64,000 nucleotides of DNA from Rickettsiales bacterium (GCA_017620845.1 JAGAUJ010000012.1:1315-65314); one strand, 5' to 3'; shown: positions 40,499-52,356, counted from the first letter of the stretch. The notes: generated from the letters alone by a model not told the origin. Numbers and translations are program-made.

Positions 40499-43400
40499 AT
40501 GTCATTTTTTAAATCTAAATTATTTAAAGTATCATGTTGTTTATTGTTTGCTGTGTGTATTAGCTCTTGTGATGAAATGGAATTGTGTTTTTATAATGAT
40601 GATTTTGGCGAGAGTTCGAATAAAGATAGTTTTTATGTGTATACATCTGAAACTAATTGTTATTTTAATCAATCCGTGGCACATAATGATCCTGGACAAA
40701 GTTATACTGTTCAAAAATGTATTATAGAAACGGATTTAAATACTATGGCAACAGCAATAGATGGTATTTATGGAACCGATTTAGTCAATGATATTAACAA
40801 AGTAAGTTTTAAAGGAAATACTTGTAGTTATGCAGATCCAAATAATACAGGTAATGAAGTAACTCCGCAGGGCACAACCACAGAGAGTGAAGCAAATACA
40901 ATAATGACAGCCGTATATGATAAATGTGTTACATATTGTACCGACAAGTGTGAGTCTGCTGGTTCATCTATTGATTCACAATGGACTAAGGCGTCACTTA
41001 AAACAAGTAAGTCATATCTTGGTATAAAATTGACAACTAACTCATATGTATATGTGACTGTATCTGGAACAATCATACTTACAGCAGAAAATAATAGTTC
41101 GTCTGCTACATATAGTAAAATTGGTATAAATGATGTTAGTTATGATAAACAAATAGCTGGTGGCGATTATTTACAATTGGCATTAGATTATAATAAAAGC
41201 ACCCTTAGTAATTTTAGTAATGATATAAATAATTTAAAAAACAGAACGGTTGTTTTTTTGGAATCAGTGAAGAGTGATTTAGTTTTGTCTGATGCTAGTA
41301 GTGCATATAATTATCAACAACCAAAGTATAAATTATTAAAATGTGATTATTTTGAAAAAGATGTAAATACTAAAATGAATAATAAAAATTGTTATTTTGA
41401 TTTTAGTAAAAGTGATATTGAAGATAATATAAAAGATACATTAAGTAGTTACTACAATAAGAATTATTTAATGTCAATTTTTGGTATTGATTATTATATA
41501 TATGCAAATAATTTTATAGATAATATTTATTATACTGGCGATGATGGTAATGTGATTAGCACAAATGAGAAATTAGTATCAGTTCGTAGTGGTAAAGAAA
41601 TTATATTAGAATCAAACAATCAATATGTTGATGGTTATATATTAAATGGTAGTTCTATTTCGTTTAATATTAGTAATGCTTCAAAAATTGCAATAAAATA
41701 TATTGGAACAGCAACAAGTAATGTTAATTGTAAATTGTCTGCTTTAACTACAAATAACTATAAAATTGTAAAAGAGGGAGATGTTAATAATGTTGCTCTT
41801 GAAGAAAAAGTATATGATAATATAATATACAATGCTACACCAATAATTACAAGTAGCACTGATGTTACAAATAATAATGTTTGGAAAACATTGAAAACCA
41901 GTGTTGGAACCGATGGTGAACAAAAAGAAATAGTTTTTAATCAATTTTCTACTCCATATAAACAAATAACTTCTAAAATAACACTTACTTTAAGTGAAGA
42001 TAGCGATAGCACTTGTAATGGTGGATTATTGATAAAAATAATTCCGTTGAAAGATTATGAAGTAACAAAAAGTGGTTTATTGTTTTTTGATTTTGTTGAT
42101 ATGGGTTCTGGTGATAATGTGAGTTACAATATTATAAATCCAGAGGTTTTATATAAAAATAGTTTGGATGATTTAAGTATAAAAGTTAATGATTTTTATG
42201 AATATACTGAGGCTGGTTCAACACTTAATAAAACACTTAATTTTGGTGAGTGGCAGAGTTTGCCAGTTGTTGATTCTGGTGATTTGGATAGAATTGATTC
42301 AAATATTTTTCCAAGTGATTCTGTGTTACATAAGAAATATGTTTTTGTTAGAAAAGGTCAATATATAAGGTTTGATTATACGAATTGGTTTGAAATTGAT
42401 GATAAAAATAATATAGAATTGAAAATAACTTCGGTCGATAGTATTGATATTGATAAAATAGTTGGTATTCATGCATTAATAAAAGAAAGACCATCATATA
42501 TTTGTGCTGGTAATTATAAGGAGTCTCTCGATGTTAAGACGGAGTGTTCCTCAATGGGTGGTGATTATGAAAGTTTTTATACAAGTGCTGATAATACTAA
42601 AATAGAAAATAGATGTTATATTACGGCTGGCGAATGTACTGCGAGTAAAGAATTAGTAAGTGAGTTTCAAAATATTAATAAATATGCTCAAGACTGTAAA
42701 TATACAACAGCTAAATCTAATGAATTTATAAATGAAATGAAATTATCTGAGTTTTGGAGTAATGTTTATACATCCTATAGTAGTAAATGTAGTGATAAAG
42801 ATGGTAAAGAAATAACTTGTTATAAACAATGTTATCATAATTTAATAGAAAAAATATTAAATCAAACAAAAAAGTGTCAGAATGTTTTAAATAGTGAAAA
42901 TTATACAGTTTACAAAGGTAACGTTGTATGTAATGATGGCGTTTGTAATGAAAGCCATAGAGAAAGTTTTAATATTGATATTGATTTAAAAAATGTTATA
43001 AAAGCAGGCGATGGTGTTATTACAGATGTTACAGGTTCTGTTAATAGTTTAAATGATTTTTTTGTAATATCCAGTGCTAATGGTGGTAACATTCGTTCTG
43101 CTTTATATTACTATAAAAATATATGTAGTATTGATAATACTACTGGTTTATGCTACACAAATGCAATACCAATGTGTTATGATTTGACAAACTATATTGG
43201 TTCAACATTAAATTTTTTAAAAAGAACATTAGAACACTCTAAGGGAACTATTTCTGCTGGAACTATAAATACTTATGGAACTATGACTAATAACGATGTT
43301 CAACTTGGCGCTGAAAGAATAAGTTATTTTAATGGAAATAGTGGTTTAATAAAAAATTTTGCTGAAGATAGTAATGCTAATGCTAGTGATAATTATGTTA

Positions 43401-46153
43401 GATTAAAATATACTAATTCTATTTATGTTAATAATACTGCTTTTTTGGGTGTTTATATTTTAAATGTTTTGAATGATGTTTCTAAATTTAATGAATATTT
43501 TATTTATACTGATGTTAAAGATACAATATTAAAATTACAGAGTGATGCTAAAAAAACATATAAAAATGGTGCAAATTTGGCTGTTATGATTGGTGAAAAC
43601 AGTAAAAAATATTATAGTAATGAAGCAAATAATTCTATTTATTATTATGATTCTGGTAATGAAGTATCAGTCACATCAACTATAAATGGTAGTGATAATA
43701 TTGGTAAACACATTGTTGAACTTGTAAAATATAAAAAAAGTAATAGTGAAACTATTTTTGATAATTTATCTCCATATAAGTTTAATGATAAGGGTGAATT
43801 GGTTACAGTAAATGGTAGTATGACTGGAATAGATTTTGCAAATTTTGATTTGGGAAAAGCATATATTGAAAGTAATAAATCAGATGGTGTTAATCCAAGT
43901 GATAAAAATTTGTTTTTTAAAATAATTGATGCTGATGCTAATATTGGTAATAATGAAGGTAGATATAGAGTTGTGGTTAAAGAGTATAATAATTCTGAAA
44001 GCGGTATAATAACATATTTTAGGGATTTTTTTAATAATATTCTTCAATTTATAGATGGGGCATATATAAAGTTATATAAGAATACTGCAACTAACACACT
44101 TGTTAGTTGTTCTAGCAATAACAGCGATGCTGGTAAATGTTATATATATAATGAGGACGATGTAAGTAATAATGGTAGTGCGTGTTCTGTTGATGATGAT
44201 AATTGTTATGAAGGTTGTGATGGTATTGGTTCTAATGATATAAATAGAAAATGTATATCTGTATATGATGGTAAGGGTTTTGTAAAGGGAATTTATGAAA
44301 CTTTTATAAATGATCCATTATATATATTTGTAGCAAAGATATTGTTGGTATTATCTATAACTTGGTATGGTTTTGGGTATTTTCTTGGAATGAGTGAATT
44401 TAAGCAATCTGAAATAATTCCAAAAATAATAAAAGTGTCATTTATTTATTTTATGATTAGTCCAAGCGGATGGAATTTTTTTAATAATTATATTATAAAG
44501 TTCTTTAAAGAGTGTATTGATAATGTATTATTTCTTATTGCTGGTTCTTTTGAAAGTGATCTTGGATCTGAATTAACACAAGCGATACAACAAAATAATT
44601 ATACTGATAAAACAGTTTTATTTAGTGGTTGTTTTACTAATTTAGAGATGATATTTTCAGATGCTGTGTTTAATAAAATATTAGGACTTGCATTTTCTGG
44701 ATGGGTAGGATTAATATATTTATATCTTGTTTTTTCTGCTGTTATAAACTATGTTATTGCCTCATTAAGTGCAATGATAATGTATTTGTCGGCACAAGTT
44801 TATATGTCGTTAATATTTTGTTTCTTTCCATTGGTTGTTTTATTTATGTTTTTCAAAAAAACCGAAAAGACATTTGATAATTGGTTGGGTTTATTAATAG
44901 GATTTGCTGGGCAACAAGTGTTTTTAATTATGACATTGTCTTTCTTTAATTTACTTATTTATAACTTTATAAGAACTACATTTAGTTATACTGTTTGCTG
45001 GTTGTCTATATTTAATATAAATGTTGGTGGTATTCCTTTAGCGGCAATAATGTTTTGGAAAATACCTGGAACTACAATGTCATCTACTGGTATAAATACT
45101 GGAAATGAAGCAATGCCAAGTTTTTATAGTATAATTACATTTTATATGGTTGGTGTATTAATGGGTAAATTTATAACTGAAATGGCAAGTATTGGAAATA
45201 GTATATTTGGTGGTATGAGTATGTCTGGTGGTATAGCAAGCACACTTACTGATGGTTTGAATAAAGCTGGTGCAAAACTTACACAAAGCATGAAACAAAT
45301 TGGTAGCACGTTTGCATCTGGTGTAGCCAATAGACTTGGCGGTAAGGCGATTAAGGAATTTGGAGATAAACAAAGACAGGAAATTGTTGATAGAAGACAA
45401 AAAAGAAATGAACATTTTAAGGATGTAAAAAAACAAACTAGTAAAGATATGGATAATTTTAAAAAAGATGCTATTGATGAGAATAAAAGGAAGGAGGATA
45501 AAACCAAAAAAGAAGAAAATGATAAAACCATAAAAGAATTAGAGGGAAAAAAGAATAATGGAGATAAATTAACAGAAGAAGAACAAAAGAAATATGACGA
45601 AGCCGTTAAAAGCAATAAAGAAATTAAAGATAGAGAAGAATATTATAAAAATTACAAAATTATAGAAAACGGTAATTCTAAAAATGCTACAAAAGAAGAA
45701 AAAAAGGCCGCAAAAGAAGCAGAAGAACGTAATAGTAAACTTTTAGCCAGAAAACAAAAAGAATTTGCATATAATAATGAGGTGGATAGTGTTATGAAAA
45801 AATATGGAGAAGATATGAAAGATGCCTATATTGCCAATGGTGGATCTGAAGAACAGTGGAATAATATAGATGAAGACGATAAAAGACAAATGGCAATAGA
45901 ATATGGAACTTCGCGTGGTTTAATTGGTGATAAACCAGAAGAAGTTAATAAACCAAAAAATGATACACCAAGATCTGAGGCTAGTGGTGGACAGCAAGGT
46001 GATAATCCACCAAGTAATGAACAAAATGATGGATCTGGCAATGATGGTGGAGATGGTGACACTTCGTCAAGTGGTGAACAAAGTGATGGATCTGGTAATG
46101 GTGATGGAAGTAATAATAACGATGAAGAACAAACAAATTCTATTGATGCATAA
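40499..46153 (+). CDS. virB6: Third giant VirB6-family protein (1884 aa), possible lipoprotein
   Basis: Lipobox-like ISSC; LFFKI.D....NN.G.Y.V motif; TM core with SP.GWNFF, FFPLVVLFMFFKKTEKTFDNW; charged low-complexity tail. Confidence 0.78.
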   Translation: MSFFKSKLFKVSCCLLFAVCISSCDEMELCFYNDDFGESSNKDSFYVYTSETNCYFNQSVAHNDPGQSYTVQKCIIETDLNTMATAIDGIYGTDLVNDINKVSFKGNTCSYADPNNTGNEVTPQGTTTESEANTIMTAVYDKCVTYCTDKCESAGSSIDSQWTKASLKTSKSYLGIKLTTNSYVYVTVSGTIILTAENNSSSATYSKIGINDVSYDKQIAGGDYLQLALDYNKSTLSNFSNDINNLKNRTVVFLESVKSDLVLSDASSAYNYQQPKYKLLKCDYFEKDVNTKMNNKNCYFDFSKSDIEDNIKDTLSSYYNKNYLMSIFGIDYYIYANNFIDNIYYTGDDGNVISTNEKLVSVRSGKEIILESNNQYVDGYILNGSSISFNISNASKIAIKYIGTATSNVNCKLSALTTNNYKIVKEGDVNNVALEEKVYDNIIYNATPIITSSTDVTNNNVWKTLKTSVGTDGEQKEIVFNQFSTPYKQITSKITLTLSEDSDSTCNGGLLIKIIPLKDYEVTKSGLLFFDFVDMGSGDNVSYNIINPEVLYKNSLDDLSIKVNDFYEYTEAGSTLNKTLNFGEWQSLPVVDSGDLDRIDSNIFPSDSVLHKKYVFVRKGQYIRFDYTNWFEIDDKNNIELKITSVDSIDIDKIVGIHALIKERPSYICAGNYKESLDVKTECSSMGGDYESFYTSADNTKIENRCYITAGECTASKELVSEFQNINKYAQDCKYTTAKSNEFINEMKLSEFWSNVYTSYSSKCSDKDGKEITCYKQCYHNLIEKILNQTKKCQNVLNSENYTVYKGNVVCNDGVCNESHRESFNIDIDLKNVIKAGDGVITDVTGSVNSLNDFFVISSANGGNIRSALYYYKNICSIDNTTGLCYTNAIPMCYDLTNYIGSTLNFLKRTLEHSKGTISAGTINTYGTMTNNDVQLGAERISYFNGNSGLIKNFAEDSNANASDNYVRLKYTNSIYVNNTAFLGVYILNVLNDVSKFNEYFIYTDVKDTILKLQSDAKKTYKNGANLAVMIGENSKKYYSNEANNSIYYYDSGNEVSVTSTINGSDNIGKHIVELVKYKKSNSETIFDNLSPYKFNDKGELVTVNGSMTGIDFANFDLGKAYIESNKSDGVNPSDKNLFFKIIDADANIGNNEGRYRVVVKEYNNSESGIITYFRDFFNNILQFIDGAYIKLYKNTATNTLVSCSSNNSDAGKCYIYNEDDVSNNGSACSVDDDNCYEGCDGIGSNDINRKCISVYDGKGFVKGIYETFINDPLYIFVAKILLVLSITWYGFGYFLGMSEFKQSEIIPKIIKVSFIYFMISPSGWNFFNNYIIKFFKECIDNVLFLIAGSFESDLGSELTQAIQQNNYTDKTVLFSGCFTNLEMIFSDAVFNKILGLAFSGWVGLIYLYLVFSAVINYVIASLSAMIMYLSAQVYMSLIFCFFPLVVLFMFFKKTEKTFDNWLGLLIGFAGQQVFLIMTLSFFNLLIYNFIRTTFSYTVCWLSIFNINVGGIPLAAIMFWKIPGTTMSSTGINTGNEAMPSFYSIITFYMVGVLMGKFITEMASIGNSIFGGMSMSGGIASTLTDGLNKAGAKLTQSMKQIGSTFASGVANRLGGKAIKEFGDKQRQEIVDRRQKRNEHFKDVKKQTSKDMDNFKKDAIDENKRKEDKTKKEENDKTIKELEGKKNNGDKLTEEEQKKYDEAVKSNKEIKDREEYYKNYKIIENGNSKNATKEEKKAAKEAEERNSKLLARKQKEFAYNNEVDSVMKKYGEDMKDAYIANGGSEEQWNNIDEDDKRQMAIEYGTSRGLIGDKPEEVNKPKNDTPRSEASGGQQGDNPPSNEQNDGSGNDGGDGDTSSSGEQSDGSGNGDGSNNNDEEQTNSIDA

Positions 46154-46283
46154 ATTATCCAAGTAATATATATTTGTTATTAAAATACAAACATATATTA
46201 AGACATATTTTTACTAAAATATTGATAATTATATTTTTGGAATTACCTTATTATAGTAAATTATTTATGCATTAAAATAAGCA

Positions 46284-47339
46284 ATGTTATCCAAATGGAA
46301 ATTTTTTCTTAAATACTTAAACAAATACAAACTATCTATAATTACTTTTGTTATTTCATTTTTTATAGTTGATAATATTTGTTATTCGTATTTTGCAAAT
46401 TCAATATATGTAAAAGTAGTAAATAATATAAGCACGCTTACACTAAAAGATTCAATTATTTTAATAATAATATATTCATTACTTTTACCAATATACAACA
46501 TTTTTTTCCCAATTATTTCAAAATTTAATTTCAGTTTAACAACAAAAGCAAGAAAAGACATAGAAATAGATTTATTTAAAAAAACAATAGGACAGAATAT
46601 TGGCTATTTTAATAATAATTTAAGTGGCAGTTTATCAAATAAAATAAGTACCGTCGCAAGAACGACTGTATACTTAATACCTTTTGGACATCTTAACACA
46701 ATATTTTTATTTATATGGTTTTTATTTATATTATGTAAAATTAATATTTATTTAGCTATTTTTTCTGCAACGTGGTTTATAAGTTTTGTTTATACTTCAT
46801 TAAAATTACACACTAATTTATCAAAAGTATCAAAACAAATAAGTGAGGAAACAAGTAAATCAAATGGTGTTATTGTGGATTGTTTTTCAAATATTGGAAA
46901 TATAAAAAGTTTTTCAACTGAACTAGTAGAGTTTAGATGCCTAAAAAAACAAAGCAACAATATTTTAAGAAATCAATTAAAATATACAAAAGTATTAAAT
47001 AATTTACAGATTATTTCAGTTTGTTTTATCACAACTTTTGTACTTGTTTCTTATTTGTTTTTTTATTATGAATACAAAAATCAAAATCTTTCACTTGGTA
47101 TGTTTATTTTTTTGGCACAATTAGTTAGCCAACTTGCTGTATGGATAAGATTTACAGGAAGAAGAATTGAGCAAATAATGGAAGGTATTGGTAAAATTAA
47201 TAATGGTCTGGAACTTTTATTAAAAGAACCGGAAGTTGTTGATAATACTTCCAACGTTTTACAAAATATTTCAGGAAAAATAGTTTTTAAAAATGTAAAT
47301 TTTTCACATAAAAAAATGGAGATGAAGAATGAAAAATAA
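46284..47339 (+). CDS. Type IV ABC exporter TMD subunit 1 (TMD plus first NBD strand)
   Basis: Six TM helices, YFNNNLSGSLSNKIS, DCFSNIGNIKSFS, tail ISGKIVFKNVNFSH. Confidence 0.85.
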   Translation: MLSKWKFFLKYLNKYKLSIITFVISFFIVDNICYSYFANSIYVKVVNNISTLTLKDSIILIIIYSLLLPIYNIFFPIISKFNFSLTTKARKDIEIDLFKKTIGQNIGYFNNNLSGSLSNKISTVARTTVYLIPFGHLNTIFLFIWFLFILCKINIYLAIFSATWFISFVYTSLKLHTNLSKVSKQISEETSKSNGVIVDCFSNIGNIKSFSTELVEFRCLKKQSNNILRNQLKYTKVLNNLQIISVCFITTFVLVSYLFFYYEYKNQNLSLGMFIFLAQLVSQLAVWIRFTGRRIEQIMEGIGKINNGLELLLKEPEVVDNTSNVLQNISGKIVFKNVNFSHKKMEMKNEK

Positions 47340-48396
47340 AGAATTACCGAGTAAAGTTTTGCCATTATTATTTTATTTTATAAAAAAAGACACATTTAAT
47401 TCTATTGGACTTTTATTTTTTCATATTGTATGGTATATTCCCAGCATTATATTGGTTCCATATTTATCAAAATACTTAATAGATAATATAGTAACAATAA
47501 ATTTTTGGTTTGGTGTTGCTATAATATGTTTATATGCTATTGCAGAATCATTGCCTTATATAACAAATATTTTTCTTGTTCGTTTTAGATATTTATTTTC
47601 TGCCAAAACAACAGAAAAGTTGAGATGTTATATTTTTAATTATATGATTAGGCAAAATAATAATTATTTTAACAACAATTTTAGTGGTTCTATTGCTAAA
47701 AAAGTTAGCAATATAACAGATAATTTTGTTGCTTTTATATCATCTTTGTTTGATTTTATGGCAGTTTGTCTCACTTTATTGATTGCTTTGATTATGTTAA
47801 TTGTAGTAAATTACAAAATACTATTTATTGTTATTGTATGGTTGCCATTGTATATAATTGGTTCATATTATTTACTAAAAAATTTAAATAAAAAAACCAT
47901 TATTGTTGAAGAAAGTGACAGTGAATTTTATGGTTTAATTAATGATGATTTTGTTAATATTATAAATATAAAAAATTTTTCTCAAGAGGAACATGAATTT
48001 AATAAATTAAATCAAAGTGGTAAAAAAGTATTGAAAAACAGATGGAAGGAAATAGTTGCAAGAAATTATGTTTCCAGTTTTAATTATATAAATCTTGTAT
48101 TTTTTAGTGTTTCTACGTTAATTATGTGTGTTTTAAGTTATTTTTCTGGAAATATAACAGTTGGAACATTTGTATCTTTGATGATTCTTGTAAAAGTTGT
48201 AGTAAGTTTTCAGGCACAATTAGTTATTGGTTTAGAACAATTAACTGAAATGTATGGAACAATAAACAATGGATTATCCTTATTAGAACATAGTAATGAA
48301 ATAGAAGATTGTGCAACTGCAAAAAATATACAAAATATTTCAGGAAGAATAGAGTTTAAAAATGTTAATTTTACATATAATAATAATTTAAATTAG
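47329..48396 (+). CDS. Type IV ABC exporter TMD subunit 2 (TMD plus first NBD strand and A-loop Tyr)
   Basis: YFNNNFSGSIAKKVS, DDFVNIINIKNFS, ITVGTFV, tail ISGRIEFKNVNFTY; GGAG SD before ATG. Confidence 0.85.
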   Translation: MKNKELPSKVLPLLFYFIKKDTFNSIGLLFFHIVWYIPSIILVPYLSKYLIDNIVTINFWFGVAIICLYAIAESLPYITNIFLVRFRYLFSAKTTEKLRCYIFNYMIRQNNNYFNNNFSGSIAKKVSNITDNFVAFISSLFDFMAVCLTLLIALIMLIVVNYKILFIVIVWLPLYIIGSYYLLKNLNKKTIIVEESDSEFYGLINDDFVNIINIKNFSQEEHEFNKLNQSGKKVLKNRWKEIVARNYVSSFNYINLVFFSVSTLIMCVLSYFSGNITVGTFVSLMILVKVVVSFQAQLVIGLEQLTEMYGTINNGLSLLEHSNEIEDCATAKNIQNISGRIEFKNVNFTYNNNLN

Positions 48397-48404
48397 GAAA
48401 AATT

Positions 48405-49115
48405 ATGGAAAATAAAGTATTTGATGATTTTAATTTAACAATAGAACCAAACCAAAAACTTGGTATCATGGGTCCATCAGGTGCAGGCAAATCTACATTA
48501 ATAAATTTATTATTAAGATTCTTTGATGTAGATAATGGAGAAATATTAATAGATGGGTATAATATAAAAAATGACATAACACAAAAATCATTAAGAGAGA
48601 ATATATCATATATACCACAAGACCCAGTATTATTTCATAGGACAATAAGAGAGAATATAATATATGGTAAATTAGATGCCACAGAAGAAGAATTAATAGA
48701 AGCAACAAAAATGGCTTGCTGTTATGACTTTATAATAAATCTTGAAAATGGATTTGACACTATTGTTGGAGAAAGAGGTGTTAAATTATCAGGAGGACAA
48801 AGACAAAGAATAGCAATAGCAAGAGCAATATTAAAGAATAGTAAAATATTAATACTTGATGAAGCAACTTCTGCATTAGATAGTATAACGGAAAAAGAAA
48901 TACAAAAAGCATTAGAGAATTTAATGAAAAATAAAACAGTTATAGCTATAGCTCATAGATTGTCTACTTTAAATATAATGGATAGAATAGTTGTTTTAGA
49001 TAAGGGTAAAATAGTTGAGGATGGAACAAAAGAAGAATTGCTGAATAAACAAGATGGTCTATTTAAGAAAATGTGGGATATGCAGAAGGATGGGATGGTT
49101 GGAGAGGAAATATAA
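48405..49115 (+). CDS. Stand-alone ABC exporter NBD lacking strand beta1
   Basis: GPSGAGKST, IPQD, VGERGVKLSGGQRQR, ILILDEATSALD, IAHRLST; own AGGA SD. Confidence 0.93.
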   Translation: MENKVFDDFNLTIEPNQKLGIMGPSGAGKSTLINLLLRFFDVDNGEILIDGYNIKNDITQKSLRENISYIPQDPVLFHRTIRENIIYGKLDATEEELIEATKMACCYDFIINLENGFDTIVGERGVKLSGGQRQRIAIARAILKNSKILILDEATSALDSITEKEIQKALENLMKNKTVIAIAHRLSTLNIMDRIVVLDKGKIVEDGTKEELLNKQDGLFKKMWDMQKDGMVGEEI

Positions 49116-49180
49116 ATGTTGAAAAAATAAAAATTTTTTTTATAATATAAATTATATTTTTTAATAACAAATTTATAATT

Positions 49181-49861
49181 ATGGCAAAACCAATAGTAAA
49201 AAATATTTTTTGGGATGTTGATGGAGTATTGTCAAACTTAAATCACGCCTATTATGCTTTTATAAAAAATCACCCAAAATTTAAAGATTATTTTAAAAAT
49301 TTTGAATATAAAGATCTTCCAAAGGCATTACCAATAGACACTGAAAAATTCGGTGCCATAGAATTGACATCTCACCCAACCTTAGGAACTGAATTAGATT
49401 ATGAATTTTGCCACAGTGAAGATTATTATTTTGATAGACCTTTATATCCAGGAACTGCTAAAATATTAAGAGAACTTAATGAACTTGGTTATAATCAAAT
49501 AACTATGTCTGCTGGTTTTAATATGGAAAAGAAAATGAAATTATTGCATAAAGCATTAGATGGTTTAGATTTTATTAAATTAGAAGCAGTAGAACACGAT
49601 AAAGCTGGTATGGAGGCAGGAAGCACAAAAGAAGCAAGAATGTTGCAAGTTTTAGAAAAAATGGGTGCTAAACCAGAAGAAACAATACTTGTTGATGATA
49701 GAATTTATAATATCTATTCAGCAATAAAAGCAGGAATTAGACCTATAAGATTTAGAAGTGAATTTACAACTGATTCTCCAGCAGGTTTGAAAGATGTTGT
49801 TGAAGTTGATAATATCTATCAATTGAGAGATTGGTTGTTGAATGAAACTGTTAGGGGATAA
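49181..49861 (+). CDS. HAD-superfamily hydrolase
   Basis: FWDVDGVL, LYPG, TMS, K, ILVDDR motifs. Confidence 0.82.
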   Translation: MAKPIVKNIFWDVDGVLSNLNHAYYAFIKNHPKFKDYFKNFEYKDLPKALPIDTEKFGAIELTSHPTLGTELDYEFCHSEDYYFDRPLYPGTAKILRELNELGYNQITMSAGFNMEKKMKLLHKALDGLDFIKLEAVEHDKAGMEAGSTKEARMLQVLEKMGAKPEETILVDDRIYNIYSAIKAGIRPIRFRSEFTTDSPAGLKDVVEVDNIYQLRDWLLNETVRG

Positions 49862-49888: not shown

Positions 49889-50755
49889 ATGGAAAAATTT
49901 TTGGAAATTTTTAATAATAAAAAGTTTAATGATTTTATTGATAGAACTTATGTCAGTATAGAACATATTGAAAATCCGAGGAATATAAAAAATATCAGTA
50001 ATGAAGTTGATACTTTAATAAAAACATTTCCAATATCTACTAAAAATTCTCCTTATGCTGGTATTTATGGTTTACCAGGATCTGGAAAAAGTACTCTTGC
50101 AAGACAAGTTTCTGAAGAGTGTAGTATTCCTGTTATTTCTACTGATAAGTTTTTAGCTGATTTAAGAGAACAAAATCCTGATTTTCCTCCAGCAAAACAT
50201 AATGATGAATTTAGAAAACATGAATATAAGGTTATTTGTTGTTTATTTTTATCTGGTTTTGCTGAAAATAAAATAATAGATTTTGGTGGTGCTGCATTGT
50301 TACAGTCTGGTTTGGGATTGATAAGTAAAAATGTGTTGGGTGATGCTCTTATAAATTTAAAAATAGATGATGAAGAGAGAATTTTTCATTTAATGCAGGA
50401 TGCAGTATTGGAGCAGGGGTATAGAACTGTAATAAAAAATCAAGTGAACGAATTAAAAGAGGAAAATAAGGAAAAATTTGGACAATTACAGCAATATTTT
50501 GTTTCTTTAATAAAAGAACATAGAAACTTAAAGAATGTGCGACAAAAATTAGAAGAATTAGTAGATGGAAAAGTATTATTATCTTTTTTTAATAATATTG
50601 AAGAAATATGCAGAAATTTTGATGCAGAAAAAAGTCAATGGAGACAACCTATTTATGATAGATATAGTAAATCAATAAATTATGAAGAGGCTGGTACAAT
50701 ATTAGAAAGAAGAGCAAATCTTGATAGAAGTGTTCGAAGTATAGGTGCTGTTTAA
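49889..50755 (+). CDS. Shikimate-kinase-like P-loop kinase with extensions
   Basis: GLPGSGKSTLA, ISTD, FR..E, IIDFGGAA, C-terminal R.PIY. Confidence 0.6.
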   Translation: MEKFLEIFNNKKFNDFIDRTYVSIEHIENPRNIKNISNEVDTLIKTFPISTKNSPYAGIYGLPGSGKSTLARQVSEECSIPVISTDKFLADLREQNPDFPPAKHNDEFRKHEYKVICCLFLSGFAENKIIDFGGAALLQSGLGLISKNVLGDALINLKIDDEERIFHLMQDAVLEQGYRTVIKNQVNELKEENKEKFGQLQQYFVSLIKEHRNLKNVRQKLEELVDGKVLLSFFNNIEEICRNFDAEKSQWRQPIYDRYSKSINYEEAGTILERRANLDRSVRSIGAV

Positions 50756-50799: not shown

Positions 50800-51582
50800 A
50801 TGTCAAAAGTAATTACATTAATTCCAGTTAGGATGAAAGCAACAAGACTACCAAACAAGCCATTGTTAGATGTTAATGGCAAGACAGTTTTACAAAGAGT
50901 TTGCGAAAATGTCAAAAAATACATACAAGGTGATGTATATGTTGCAGCAGGCGATCAAGAAATAGTTGATGCTTGCAAAGAATATGGGGTGCCAGCAGTT
51001 TTAACTGATCCGGCATTGCCATCAGGAACAGACAGAATTGCATCAGCGTTAAAACAAATAGATCCAGAAGGAAATAAATATGATATAGTTGTAAATTTCC
51101 AAGGCGATGGTCTAAATGTAGATCCAAGAGTTAATTTACCACTAATTGAAATGATAGAAAAAGGCGGTTGTGATATAGCAACTTGTGGTATGATTTTTAA
51201 AACAAAAGAAGCATCTGATAATCCAACAAATGTAAAAATTATTATGGGTTTAAGAGATGGCGAAAAAGAAGGAAGAGCACTTTATTTTACAAGAGCTGCA
51301 AATTGTCCTTTTACAAGAGATCCTGCTAAAATTAAAAATCAAGATTTATATCATCATATTGGTATTTATGTTTACACTGCGGAAGCATTGAGAAAAATGG
51401 TATCTTTGCCAGTTGGTGTTCTTGAAGAAAGAGAAAGTCTTGAACAATTAAGAGCTTTGGAAAATGGTATGACTATTAAGGCAAGAATTATAAGTCAGGA
51501 AGAAATGAAATTAAATCAAGACGCTCCTGCTGATGTAAATACACCAGAAGAATTAGAAGAAGCAAGAAAATATATAAAATAA
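50800..51582 (+). CDS. kdsB: Kdo cytidylyltransferase
   Basis: IPVRMKATRLPNKPL, SGTDRI, VNFQGD, HIGIYVY, LE.RESLEQLRALENG. Confidence 0.96.
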   Translation: MSKVITLIPVRMKATRLPNKPLLDVNGKTVLQRVCENVKKYIQGDVYVAAGDQEIVDACKEYGVPAVLTDPALPSGTDRIASALKQIDPEGNKYDIVVNFQGDGLNVDPRVNLPLIEMIEKGGCDIATCGMIFKTKEASDNPTNVKIIMGLRDGEKEGRALYFTRAANCPFTRDPAKIKNQDLYHHIGIYVYTAEALRKMVSLPVGVLEERESLEQLRALENGMTIKARIISQEEMKLNQDAPADVNTPEELEEARKYIK

Positions 51583-51921: not shown

Positions 51922-52356
51922 TTAACATTCTTTAATTTTTTTTCTTAAAATAGTAGTGCTTATATGTTTCGTATATGGAAAATAAACAACTTTTATCCCA
52001 TTTTCATTATACAATTTTTCCAATTTATTCCATTTTTCTGTTCCTTTCCAATCATCGCCCACAAAAATATAATCGGCATTATATTTTTTTAAACTTGGTA
52101 AACCATAATTATCTTTATTTATAGCAACTACCTCATCAACATATTTAATTGACTTAATTATTTCCATTCTTTCTTCCAATGGTATAATTGGCGTTTTATT
52201 TTTGTATTCCTTAATATATTCATCTGTATTTACACCAACGACCAAATAATCACAATATTCTTTGCATTTTTTTAATATATTTAAGTGTCCTATATGAAAT
52301 AAATCATAACAACCACCAGTAAAACCTATTATTTTATCTTTGTTATTATTTTGCAT
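51922..52356 (-). CDS. tagD: Glycerol-3-phosphate cytidylyltransferase (TagD-like)
   Basis: GGCYDLFHIGHLNIL, VGVNTD, VGDDWKG, PYTKHISTT. Confidence 0.85.
   Translation of the reverse strand: MQNNNKDKIIGFTGGCYDLFHIGHLNILKKCKEYCDYLVVGVNTDEYIKEYKNKTPIIPLEERMEIIKSIKYVDEVVAINKDNYGLPSLKKYNADYIFVGDDWKGTEKWNKLEKLYNENGIKVVYFPYTKHISTTILRKKIKEC

Follow-up and report, generated by a model that had tools for sequence, protein, structure and literature searches.

Type IV ATP-binding cassette (ABC) transporters, the relatives of MsbA, P-glycoprotein, TAP and CFTR, are treated as fusions of a transmembrane domain (TMD) with a nucleotide-binding domain (NBD). In heterodimeric exporters each subunit is such a fusion with its own NBD, and one of the two ATP sites is often degenerate. 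Here we describe a locus with a different plan, at positions 46,284 to 49,115 of a 64,000-nucleotide stretch of DNA from a Rickettsiales bacterium (GCA_017620845.1 JAGAUJ010000012.1:1315-65314), hereafter the window. Two TMD genes, TMD1 and TMD2, are followed by a gene for a stand-alone NBD, and the A-loop position, which stacks on the adenine of ATP, lies on the TMD chains. The arrangement is a previously undescribed variant of type IV ABC exporters; a literature search, which subscription journals and supplements lay outside, found no description of a type IV transporter cut past the A-loop or of an NBD common to type IV TMD pairs.

The accessible text of a 2020 classification divides type IV systems into homodimers, heterodimers and single chains (PMC8386196), and the B. 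subtilis type IV exporters listed in the available part of another account are homodimers or two-protein heterodimers (PMC11466899). The heterodimers TM287/288, BmrCD, PatAB and EfrCD, as far as their accessible descriptions go, resemble the window locus in having two ABC_membrane TMDs from neighbouring, often overlapping genes, and in fold family, putative coupling helices and exporter-type NBD motifs; PDB chain 3qf4_B is among the matches of the profile built from the family described below. They differ in that here two identical NBD copies would come from a third gene, with strand 1 of the NBD and the A-loop on the TMD chains. MsbA and Sav1866 supply the best-scoring named models (TIGR02204, TIGR02203), and the chains of Sav1866 (2hyd_A) and MsbA match the family profile end to end, but they are fused homodimers and the window proteins score far under the MsbA cut-off.

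A published precedent for type IV TMD and NBD genes lying apart is the YddA-clade. According to accessible sections of two reports, the clade's TMD and NBD genes share an operon in N. meningitidis NCTC8554 and S. rubidaea NCTC10036 and belong to separate operons in R. tibeticum (PMC13316013, PMC12912959). This is a distant, YddA/SbmA-like branch, covered in passing through single strains, and those sections mention neither a cut within the NBD nor TMD heterodimer pairs, nor an NBD common to several pairs. The same sections describe SbmA/BacA (SLiPT) as a type IV-like TMD that, like the window TMDs, lacks an NBD, and as proton-driven, with the coupling helices lost and a glutamate ladder and TM0 gained (PMC13316013, PMC12912959). 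The window proteins, in contrast, keep the predicted coupling-helix loops and an NBD strand. Among importers, according to the accessible accounts of MsiK (Streptomyces) and FhuC (S. aureus), one ATPase energises several membrane modules encoded elsewhere. ECF group II modules likewise share an ATPase. Such importer ATPases belong to type I, II or III systems and are complete domains with their own A-loop, whereas the system described here is of type IV and its NBD is incomplete without a TMD tail.

The three genes and the position of the cut

All three genes encode type IV ABC transporter domains (Table 1). TMD1 and TMD2 match ABC_membrane (PF00664; E 3e-12, 47 bits, profile positions 6-270 of 274, and E 1e-19, 71 bits, positions 16-268, respectively; Pfam cut-off 28), and the third product matches ABC_tran (PF00005; E 1e-35, 123 bits), its Walker A, Q-loop (YIPQDP), signature, Walker B and H-loop all being intact, with invariant columns. 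TMDs and NBD do not share a polypeptide; each is encoded by a separate open reading frame (ORF) that has its own start and ribosome-binding site. TMD1 and TMD2 overlap by 11 nt, and the frames of TMD2 and the NBD differ, so that readthrough of the TMD2 stop alone would give no fusion. The NBD begins MENK-VFDDFNLTIEP...GPSGAGKST, four residues ahead of strand 2 (VFDDFNLTIEP), and the A-loop residue is absent from the chain that bears Walker A: H342 and Y350 stand on the TMD chains. TMD2 covers positions 83-350 of TIGR02204 (MsbA_rel, NCBIfam) and the NBD positions 352-575; because this coverage adjoins, the two pieces abut and nothing was lost at the break. With TIGR02203 (MsbA), TMD1, TMD2 and the NBD score 36, 69 and 290 bits, all below the equivalog cut-off of 602. 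The same genome encodes a separate fused exporter of 606 aa on contig C12.

The fold reference was an AlphaFold2 model (mean pLDDT 93.8) of a 587-aa protein from genome G009, the nearest fused relative, whose NBD is 75% identical to that of the window. In this model strand 1 spans residues 343-350, the loop 351-359 contains Tyr352, and strand 2 (360-367) is followed by the Walker A strand. Residues I343, F350 and Y352 align with the I, F and Y/H of the window tails, and the F-x-Y of the family profile aligns with the FSY of ABCB1 chain 7zk4_A. The accessible text on human ABCB1 identifies the Tyr of FSY (Y401/Y1044) as the A-loop residue that holds the adenine and, citing others, reports strong effects of A-loop mutations on hydrolysis and transport (PMC5984967). 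From the strands of the G009 model and the FSY alignment, both TMDs terminate in the loop between strands 1 and 2, just past the A-loop position. This agrees with the initial annotation of the locus, made from the sequence alone, which had proposed a cut inside the NBD fold past the A-loop. Its ORFs, tail sequences, GGAG and AGGA sites, TAG stop (48394-48396) and nucleotide match between the tails were all recovered, and its tail ends needed correction: TMD1 runs nine residues (KKMEMKNEK) past the His and TMD2 five (NNNLN) past the Tyr.

The two tails match at 44 of 50 nt (47262-47311 versus 48331-48380), while the rest of the TMDs is diverged, as had been stated (31% identity by BLASTP; 30% at the amino acid and 50% at the nucleotide level over 335 aligned codons). 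The tail is the most similar 17-codon window of the two genes (86% nt). Third codon positions are 87% A/T, the G+C content of the window is 26%, and codons agree at 11 of the 12 tail columns with identical residues and at 55 of 88 such columns in the body, a mild excess. The match appears to be explained mostly by amino acid conservation and A/T-biased codons, and a short gene conversion, though possible, is therefore not required.

The stretch is present in public runs of 10 studies, mostly ruminant and other animal gut metagenomes, and contigs of four runs from four other studies were aligned to the window as an independent check. Contigs X5 (17,764 nt) and X7 (8,267 nt), from two of these studies, span 46200-49200 with 40 and 43 substitutions, and all their listed indels fall past the end of the NBD, at 49149-49176; X11 and X20 extend across the TMD2/NBD junction gap-free. 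The TAG, for which the initial annotation had asked for read support, is thus backed by independent contigs that keep the junction. X7 carries T48387C and A48390G, both synonymous in the last TMD2 codons, and its TAG is intact. In a 5.8-billion-protein collection the TMD2 orthologues (four of four clusters at 81-97% identity) are all 355 aa long and end in NN[NK]LN, and the TMD1 orthologues (three of three clusters, at 99, 89 and 81% identity) are all 351 aa long. The agreement of independent contigs, together with these exact lengths, excludes an assembly error or a fresh nonsense mutation, and the comparison points to purifying selection on TMD1 and TMD2. The claim of a genuine split was to fall if relatives carried TMD2 and the NBD as one ORF and TMD1 were a decaying duplicate. 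No relative has such a fused ORF at the locus and the TMD1 orthologues are conserved, and the claim is upheld by the exact lengths at 81-99% identity and by congeneric genomes cut at the same point.

Conservation was measured as the mean top-residue frequency per 12-residue window in 28 full-length TMD-only proteins. Of these windows the tail ranks first (0.79 versus 0.44 overall), and the two cytoplasmic loops of the TMD are also strongly conserved (Table 1). In the G009 model, which represents a fused relative and not the window proteins, the INDDFVNIINIK loop falls where helix 164-211 ends and the short helix 213-218 lies (TM4/TM5, putative coupling helix 2), and the QNNNYFNNNFSG loop corresponds, at an offset of 2, to short helix 113-118 (TM2/TM3, putative coupling helix 1). 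Short coupling helices at TM2/TM3 and TM4/TM5 join TMD and NBD in the type IV fold, according to the accessible part of one account (PMC11267003). The same tail window scores 0.60 versus 0.36 in 68 fused relatives, ranking 2 of 341. The relative constraint on the tail thus equals that seen where an NBD is covalently attached, which is hard to explain unless the tail still completes an NBD.

Paired TMD genes and stand-alone NBDs in related genomes

Three sets of genomes were searched: 41 related genomes, 126 genomes of the family and a sample of 400 genomes of the order. Homologous TMD-TMD-NBD triplets with the same breakpoint, which the initial annotation had proposed to look for, are present in G001 and G002, the only same-genus genomes among the 41. 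Gene order and cut are the same; the TMDs end in ...GKITFKNVSFSYNS, ...GKIVFNILKFSYTKKVN, ...GKVTFKNITFSYGVDK and ...GKIVFKNITFNFNNK, and the NBDs start with MRYEMDKTIEKNVFDNFSLEIEP... and MEKKQSKNVFKDFNLEIEP.... The NBDs are 77-81% identical to the window NBD and the TMDs 24-32% identical to window TMD2, and with the cut unchanged at this TMD identity the split has outlasted a long divergence. Among the 126 family genomes, a sister genus (G074-G080) is rich in TMD-only genes.

Altogether 30 TMD-only ORFs occur in nine genomes, 28 of them full length, and all 30 end 0-9 residues past the aromatic; the A-loop position is Tyr in 28, His in one (window TMD1) and Phe in one. A profile built from 26 of these genes was compared with 1.84 billion representative proteins. 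TMD-only proteins make up 52 of the best 150 matches, end 0-15 residues past the aromatic (Tyr in 49, His in two, Phe in one) and account for almost every rank as far as E ~1e-70, where fused proteins of 560-620 aa take their place; of the full-length matches, no fused protein ranks better than E ~1e-69. In the sample of the order, the best 150 matches outside the family are fused. The few short frames inspected outside the family were rejected as split genes: those on contigs C88 and C103 of G163 and C54 of G453 are contig ends, and the one on C5 of G115 is a decayed gene. A feature search of a protein atlas, which carries little taxonomy and is a lead only, gave ABC_membrane as the sole listed Pfam domain in 29 of 30 matching clusters, three of which are 351-367 aa long. 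The His/Tyr asymmetry emphasised by the initial annotation is real, with His in all three TMD1 orthologues (P0055, P0192, P0193), and it is confined to this species-level lineage. The annotation had missed the wider pattern to which these comparisons point, a whole family of TMD pairs, many of them unlinked to a single NBD gene.

A maximum likelihood tree of the TMDs (quick search, SH-aLRT support only) contains the supported clades A1 (92, holding window TMD1), B1 (97), A2 (98) and B2 (98), with the fused paralogues in a clade of their own. In 11 of the 13 complete pairs the first gene belongs to A1 or A2 and the second to the matching B1 or B2, and the two genes overlap by 4-50 nt in 10 of the 13. 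The exceptions are window TMD2, a long unplaced branch whose best HMMER matches are B1, second-position genes of pairs, and one pair of G077 (C7) with a B1 member first. Among the loci examined, a full-length TMD-only gene never stood alone away from contig ends. Diverged TMD genes are thus kept adjacent through species and duplications, and pairs that duplicate as units behave as obligate partners.

Stand-alone NBD frames (242-255 aa, 77-81% identity) occur among the 126 family genomes only in the window genome (G000), G001, G002, G074, G075 and G076, at two loci in G001 and, window aside, at six loci in all; the NBD of G080 is a fragment at a contig end. All seven NBD-bearing genomes have TMD-only pairs, genomes without pairs have no such NBD, and in other genera the closest NBDs lie inside fused frames of at least 569 aa. 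Linkage varies within the sister genus. In G074, and probably in G080, an A1-B1 pair follows the NBD. In G076 it lies on C56 between RNase HII-like and pseudouridine synthase-like genes, with the pairs on C23 and C6, and in G075 another gene stands between pair and NBD. G074 has two pairs and one stand-alone NBD, and its second pair, separated from the NBD by unrelated genes, lies 3.3 kb upstream. The A2/B2 pairs of G074, G075, G077 and G079 have no adjacent NBD, and the pairs of G077 and G079 are flanked by unrelated genes. There are two to three or more pairs per NBD gene in this genus, a ratio that depends on bin completeness; on these incomplete bins, NBD genes appear to be fewer than TMD modules and unlinked to them.

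Two further observations concern the NBDs. At L030 (G001:C41, 2895-3620) a TAG replaces a Lys of the other NBDs (EKEIQ*ALVNLM) in an otherwise intact NBD; incipient decay of a redundant copy, strain variation or faulty binning could account for this. The fused paralogues at L041 (2182-3969, G075; 596 aa) and L048 (1659-3509, G074; 617 aa) have TMDs in their own clade and NBDs that group as sisters (support 98) with the stand-alone ones of these genomes and share near-identical C-termini with them, a pattern suggestive of gene conversion between fused and free NBDs or of re-fusion.

Proposed assembly and its alternatives

We consider it probable that a heterodimer of an A-type and a B-type TMD docks two copies of a shared NBD, the TMD tails giving strand 1 and the A-loop in trans. 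An ancestral fused half-transporter would have been cut in the loop between NBD strands 1 and 2, past the A-loop aromatic, leaving strand 1 with the adenine-stacking residue on the TMD tails and strand 2 as the start of the NBD protein. The membrane heterodimer would consist of TMD1 (A-type) and TMD2 (B-type), with two NBD copies docked beneath it. Each tail would insert beside strand 2 of one NBD copy and tether it, the two coupling helices would provide the usual NBD contacts, and the two identical NBDs would close around two ATP molecules. Because the A-loop is supplied by the TMD, an ATP site would be complete only after docking, and the free NBD is expected to bind ATP poorly; docking on the transporter would thus license the NBD motor. 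In this species, His342 and Tyr350 would make the two ATP sites differ, a difference kept at 81-99% identity and not family-wide.

Since the tails are nearly alike, one NBD could serve any TMD. In the window genome, the one pair and the one NBD are encoded by the same operon; two to three or more unlinked TMD pairs appear to depend on a single NBD gene in the sister genus. The broader possibility of a modular system, in which an A-loop-less NBD is common to several heterodimers, each TMD brings a 12-residue plug and ATPase activity is licensed by docking, is one that we put forward tentatively, with somewhat less than even confidence. Complex prediction for TMD1, TMD2 and one NBD gave a median of 0.46, against 0.00 and 0.00 with the partner replaced and 0.60 with TMD2 replaced and the NBD kept; the score is not specific to chain 2, may reflect the kept TMD1 and weighs neither way.

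Several points weigh against the shared-NBD heterodimer. We infer the assembly, its stoichiometry, the function of the A-loop in trans and the sharing of the NBD from sequence comparison. The conservation of tail and coupling helices is typical of fused exporters too, and is thus evidence of a retained constraint, not of sharing. The deep nodes of the TMD tree are unresolved, and window TMD2 is assigned to B1 by E-values alone. With the window NBD as query, no stand-alone NBD was found in G077 (92% complete, two pairs) or G079 (69% complete, three pairs), where the NBD may be unassembled or the pairs may rely on something else. All genomes are metagenome bins, and counts of one NBD per genome hinge on completeness and binning. 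G001 has two loci, one of them on a contig of 33.7% G+C versus 29.6%, with an NBD that contains an in-frame TAG. Finally, A2 and B2 could each form homodimers.

The last point leads to the alternative, already raised in the initial annotation, that one NBD serves two homodimeric exporters, each built from two copies of the NBD with two of TMD1 or two of TMD2. Both tails are equally fit for NBD docking, and homodimers of half-transporters are common in the type IV fold according to the accessible text of the classification (PMC8386196). We nevertheless regard two homodimers as unlikely, since the genes stay together through every duplication, as the 11 A-then-B and 10 overlapping pairs among the 13 attest, and unpaired full-length TMD-only genes were not seen away from contig ends among the loci viewed; this is the obligate-partner pattern of adjacent-gene heterodimeric exporters. 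The TMD-only proteins might instead work without an NBD, proton-driven like SbmA/BacA or as a truncated exporter, with the NBD in another role. Such relatives exist, thought to be TMDs parted from their NBD in the accessible text of two reports (PMC13316013, PMC12912959), and the G077 and G079 pairs came without a stand-alone NBD. This is improbable, however: a strand-1/A-loop tail is useless without an NBD yet is the most conserved window, with the coupling loops next, whereas the SLiPT transporters lost their coupling helices (accessible text of PMC13316013), and the NBD without strand 1 occurs only alongside such TMDs.

Two explanations would do away with the split itself. A fused TMD2-NBD, pairing with TMD1 or with itself, could arise by a -1 slip at TTTAAAT (48387-48393), which fits X XXY YYZ in the TMD2 frame and leads into the NBD frame, open from 48387. 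The two X7 substitutions, synonymous in TMD2, abolish this heptamer, both G001 loci have the NBD in the TMD frame behind two stops, and most sister-genus pairs are unlinked from an NBD. The NBD also has its own AGGA and ATG, and A/T heptamers are expected by chance at 26% G+C. The heptamer loss in X7, the G001 frames and the unlinked pairs led us to reject recoding, which we consider very improbable. The chance that a fused exporter was broken by mutation or assembly error, TMD1 being a dying duplicate, is slighter still. Broken genes do occur in reduced genomes; G115 has a decayed fused exporter without Walker A, and fused exporters lie in two overlapping frames on C51 of G077 and C45 of G079. 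Yet the same cut recurs in all 30 genes of nine genomes and in 52 representative clusters, orthologues at 81-99% identity have exactly the same lengths, four independent assemblies agree, ribosome-binding sites and starts are in place, and TMDs only ~24-32% identical keep intact frames. The conserved cut, the lengths and the independent assemblies refute decay or artefact as far as sequence allows.

If the modular system is correct, the free NBD pool would be spared futile hydrolysis, and a genome of ~1 Mb would gain new transport specificities for the cost of TMD genes alone; the family would then illustrate how a reduced genome multiplies transporter specificities with one motor gene. A natural cut past the A-loop is in effect an evolutionary experiment on the role of the covalent link, strand 1 and the A-loop in coupling. 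The free NBD, tail peptides and TMD pairs are mixable parts with which ATP-site assembly in trans and NBD exchange between transporters could be studied, and the His and Tyr tails of this species could probe whether a TMD can set site asymmetry. For annotation, genes of ~350 aa with ABC_membrane only, ending in G-K-I-x-F-K-N-V-x-F-x-Y, would be read as working subunits and not as fragments.

Genomic setting and other split or broken exporters

The window genome assembly totals 1.02 Mb over 29 contigs, with 88% completeness; closed genomes of 1-2 Mb are numerous in the order. The organism is, at a guess, a Rickettsiales-like symbiont, perhaps of gut protists. Features of the locus and the genes downstream are collected in Table 1.

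Table 1. Features of the split exporter locus and of the genes downstream (window coordinates; values for loops are the conservation measure described in the text)
Feature	Position	Strand	Remarks
TMD1 gene	46284..47339	+	ORF, 351 aa, clade A1; six-helix ABC_membrane and strand-1/A-loop tail; TAA 47337-47339
TMD1 tail GKIVFKNVNFSH	47274..47309	+	Translation; NBD strand 1 and A-loop position His342; conserved columns G331, F340
GGAG ribosome-binding site of TMD2	47318..47321	+	Within TMD1 3' end; 7 nt ahead of ATG 47329
TMD2 gene	47329..48396	+	ORF, 355 aa, B1-like; TAG 48394-48396
TMD2 residues 109-120 QNNNYFNNNFSG	47653..47688	+	First cytoplasmic loop; 0.67 versus 0.44 overall
TMD2 residues 204-215 INDDFVNIINIK	47938..47973	+	Second cytoplasmic loop; second most conserved window, 0.77
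TMD2 tail GRIEFKNVNFTY	48343..48378	+	Translation; NBD strand 1 and A-loop Tyr350
AGGA ribosome-binding site of NBD	48395..48398	+	6 nt ahead of ATG 48405
Stand-alone NBD gene	48405..49115	+	ORF, 236 aa; without strand 1 and A-loop
Walker A GPSGAGKST	48471..48497	+	Translation; G23, G26, G28, K29 invariant in NBD alignment
X-loop-like VGERG, then ABC signature LSGGQ, VGERGVKLSGGQ	48765..48800	+	S129, G131 invariant
Walker B KILILDE	48843..48863	+	Catalytic Glu153; D152, E153 invariant
H-loop IAHRL	48948..48962	+	His184; H184 invariant
HAD-family hydrolase	49181-49861		Downstream of NBD
P-loop kinase-like protein	49889-50755		Downstream
KdsB-like cytidylyltransferase	50800-51582		Downstream
Small cytidylyltransferase-like protein	51922-52356	-	Downstream

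Directly upstream, at 40499-46153 (+), lies a gene for an 1884-aa protein with a TrbL/VirB6 domain at residues 1283-1490 (E 5e-12), a lipoprotein-like N-terminus and a long C-terminal tail that is Lys/Glu-rich and then Gly/Asp/Ser-rich; its sequence identifies it as a putative giant VirB6-like type IV secretion component. No outer-membrane or adaptor partner of a transporter adjoins the operon among the neighbouring window genes. A scan found 33 promoter-like sites, where 30.9 would be expected, and its only terminator-like site lies on the wrong strand; such a scan is uninformative at 26% G+C. In four runs contig depth rises several-fold at 48787-48830 (LSGGQ/Walker B), with many loose ends; this reflects conserved ABC sequences of other organisms, not copy number.

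Another genus of the same family contains a different split type IV exporter, an NBD-TMD-TMD operon at L029 (G015:C4, 797-3898). Here the cut falls at an ordinary domain boundary: the TMDs end in ...DAKELVI before strand 1, and the NBD, encoded first, keeps FIFFRNCSFTY with its own A-loop Tyr. It is a second split form in this family, possibly of independent origin. Two further TMD-only genes of G015 lie on a contig without an NBD (L028, G015:C11, 2631-4739), and at G096:C105:2122-4865 a fused 592-aa exporter has directly behind it an open frame of 353 aa, 35% identical to a G015-type TMD-only gene.

How a broken gene of the exporter family looks is shown by L053 (G115:C5, 1722-3243), a decaying fused exporter with a 300-aa frame ending in ...FRNVNFSYHNSMPLF and a second, overlapping frame of 218 aa that has the signature motif but no Walker A. 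At L043 (G077:C51, 1541-3342; 179 + 375 aa) and L044 (G079:C45, 66-1822; 240 + 353 aa) exporters are broken inside the TMD by frameshifts or assembly errors that have nothing to do with the tail cut.

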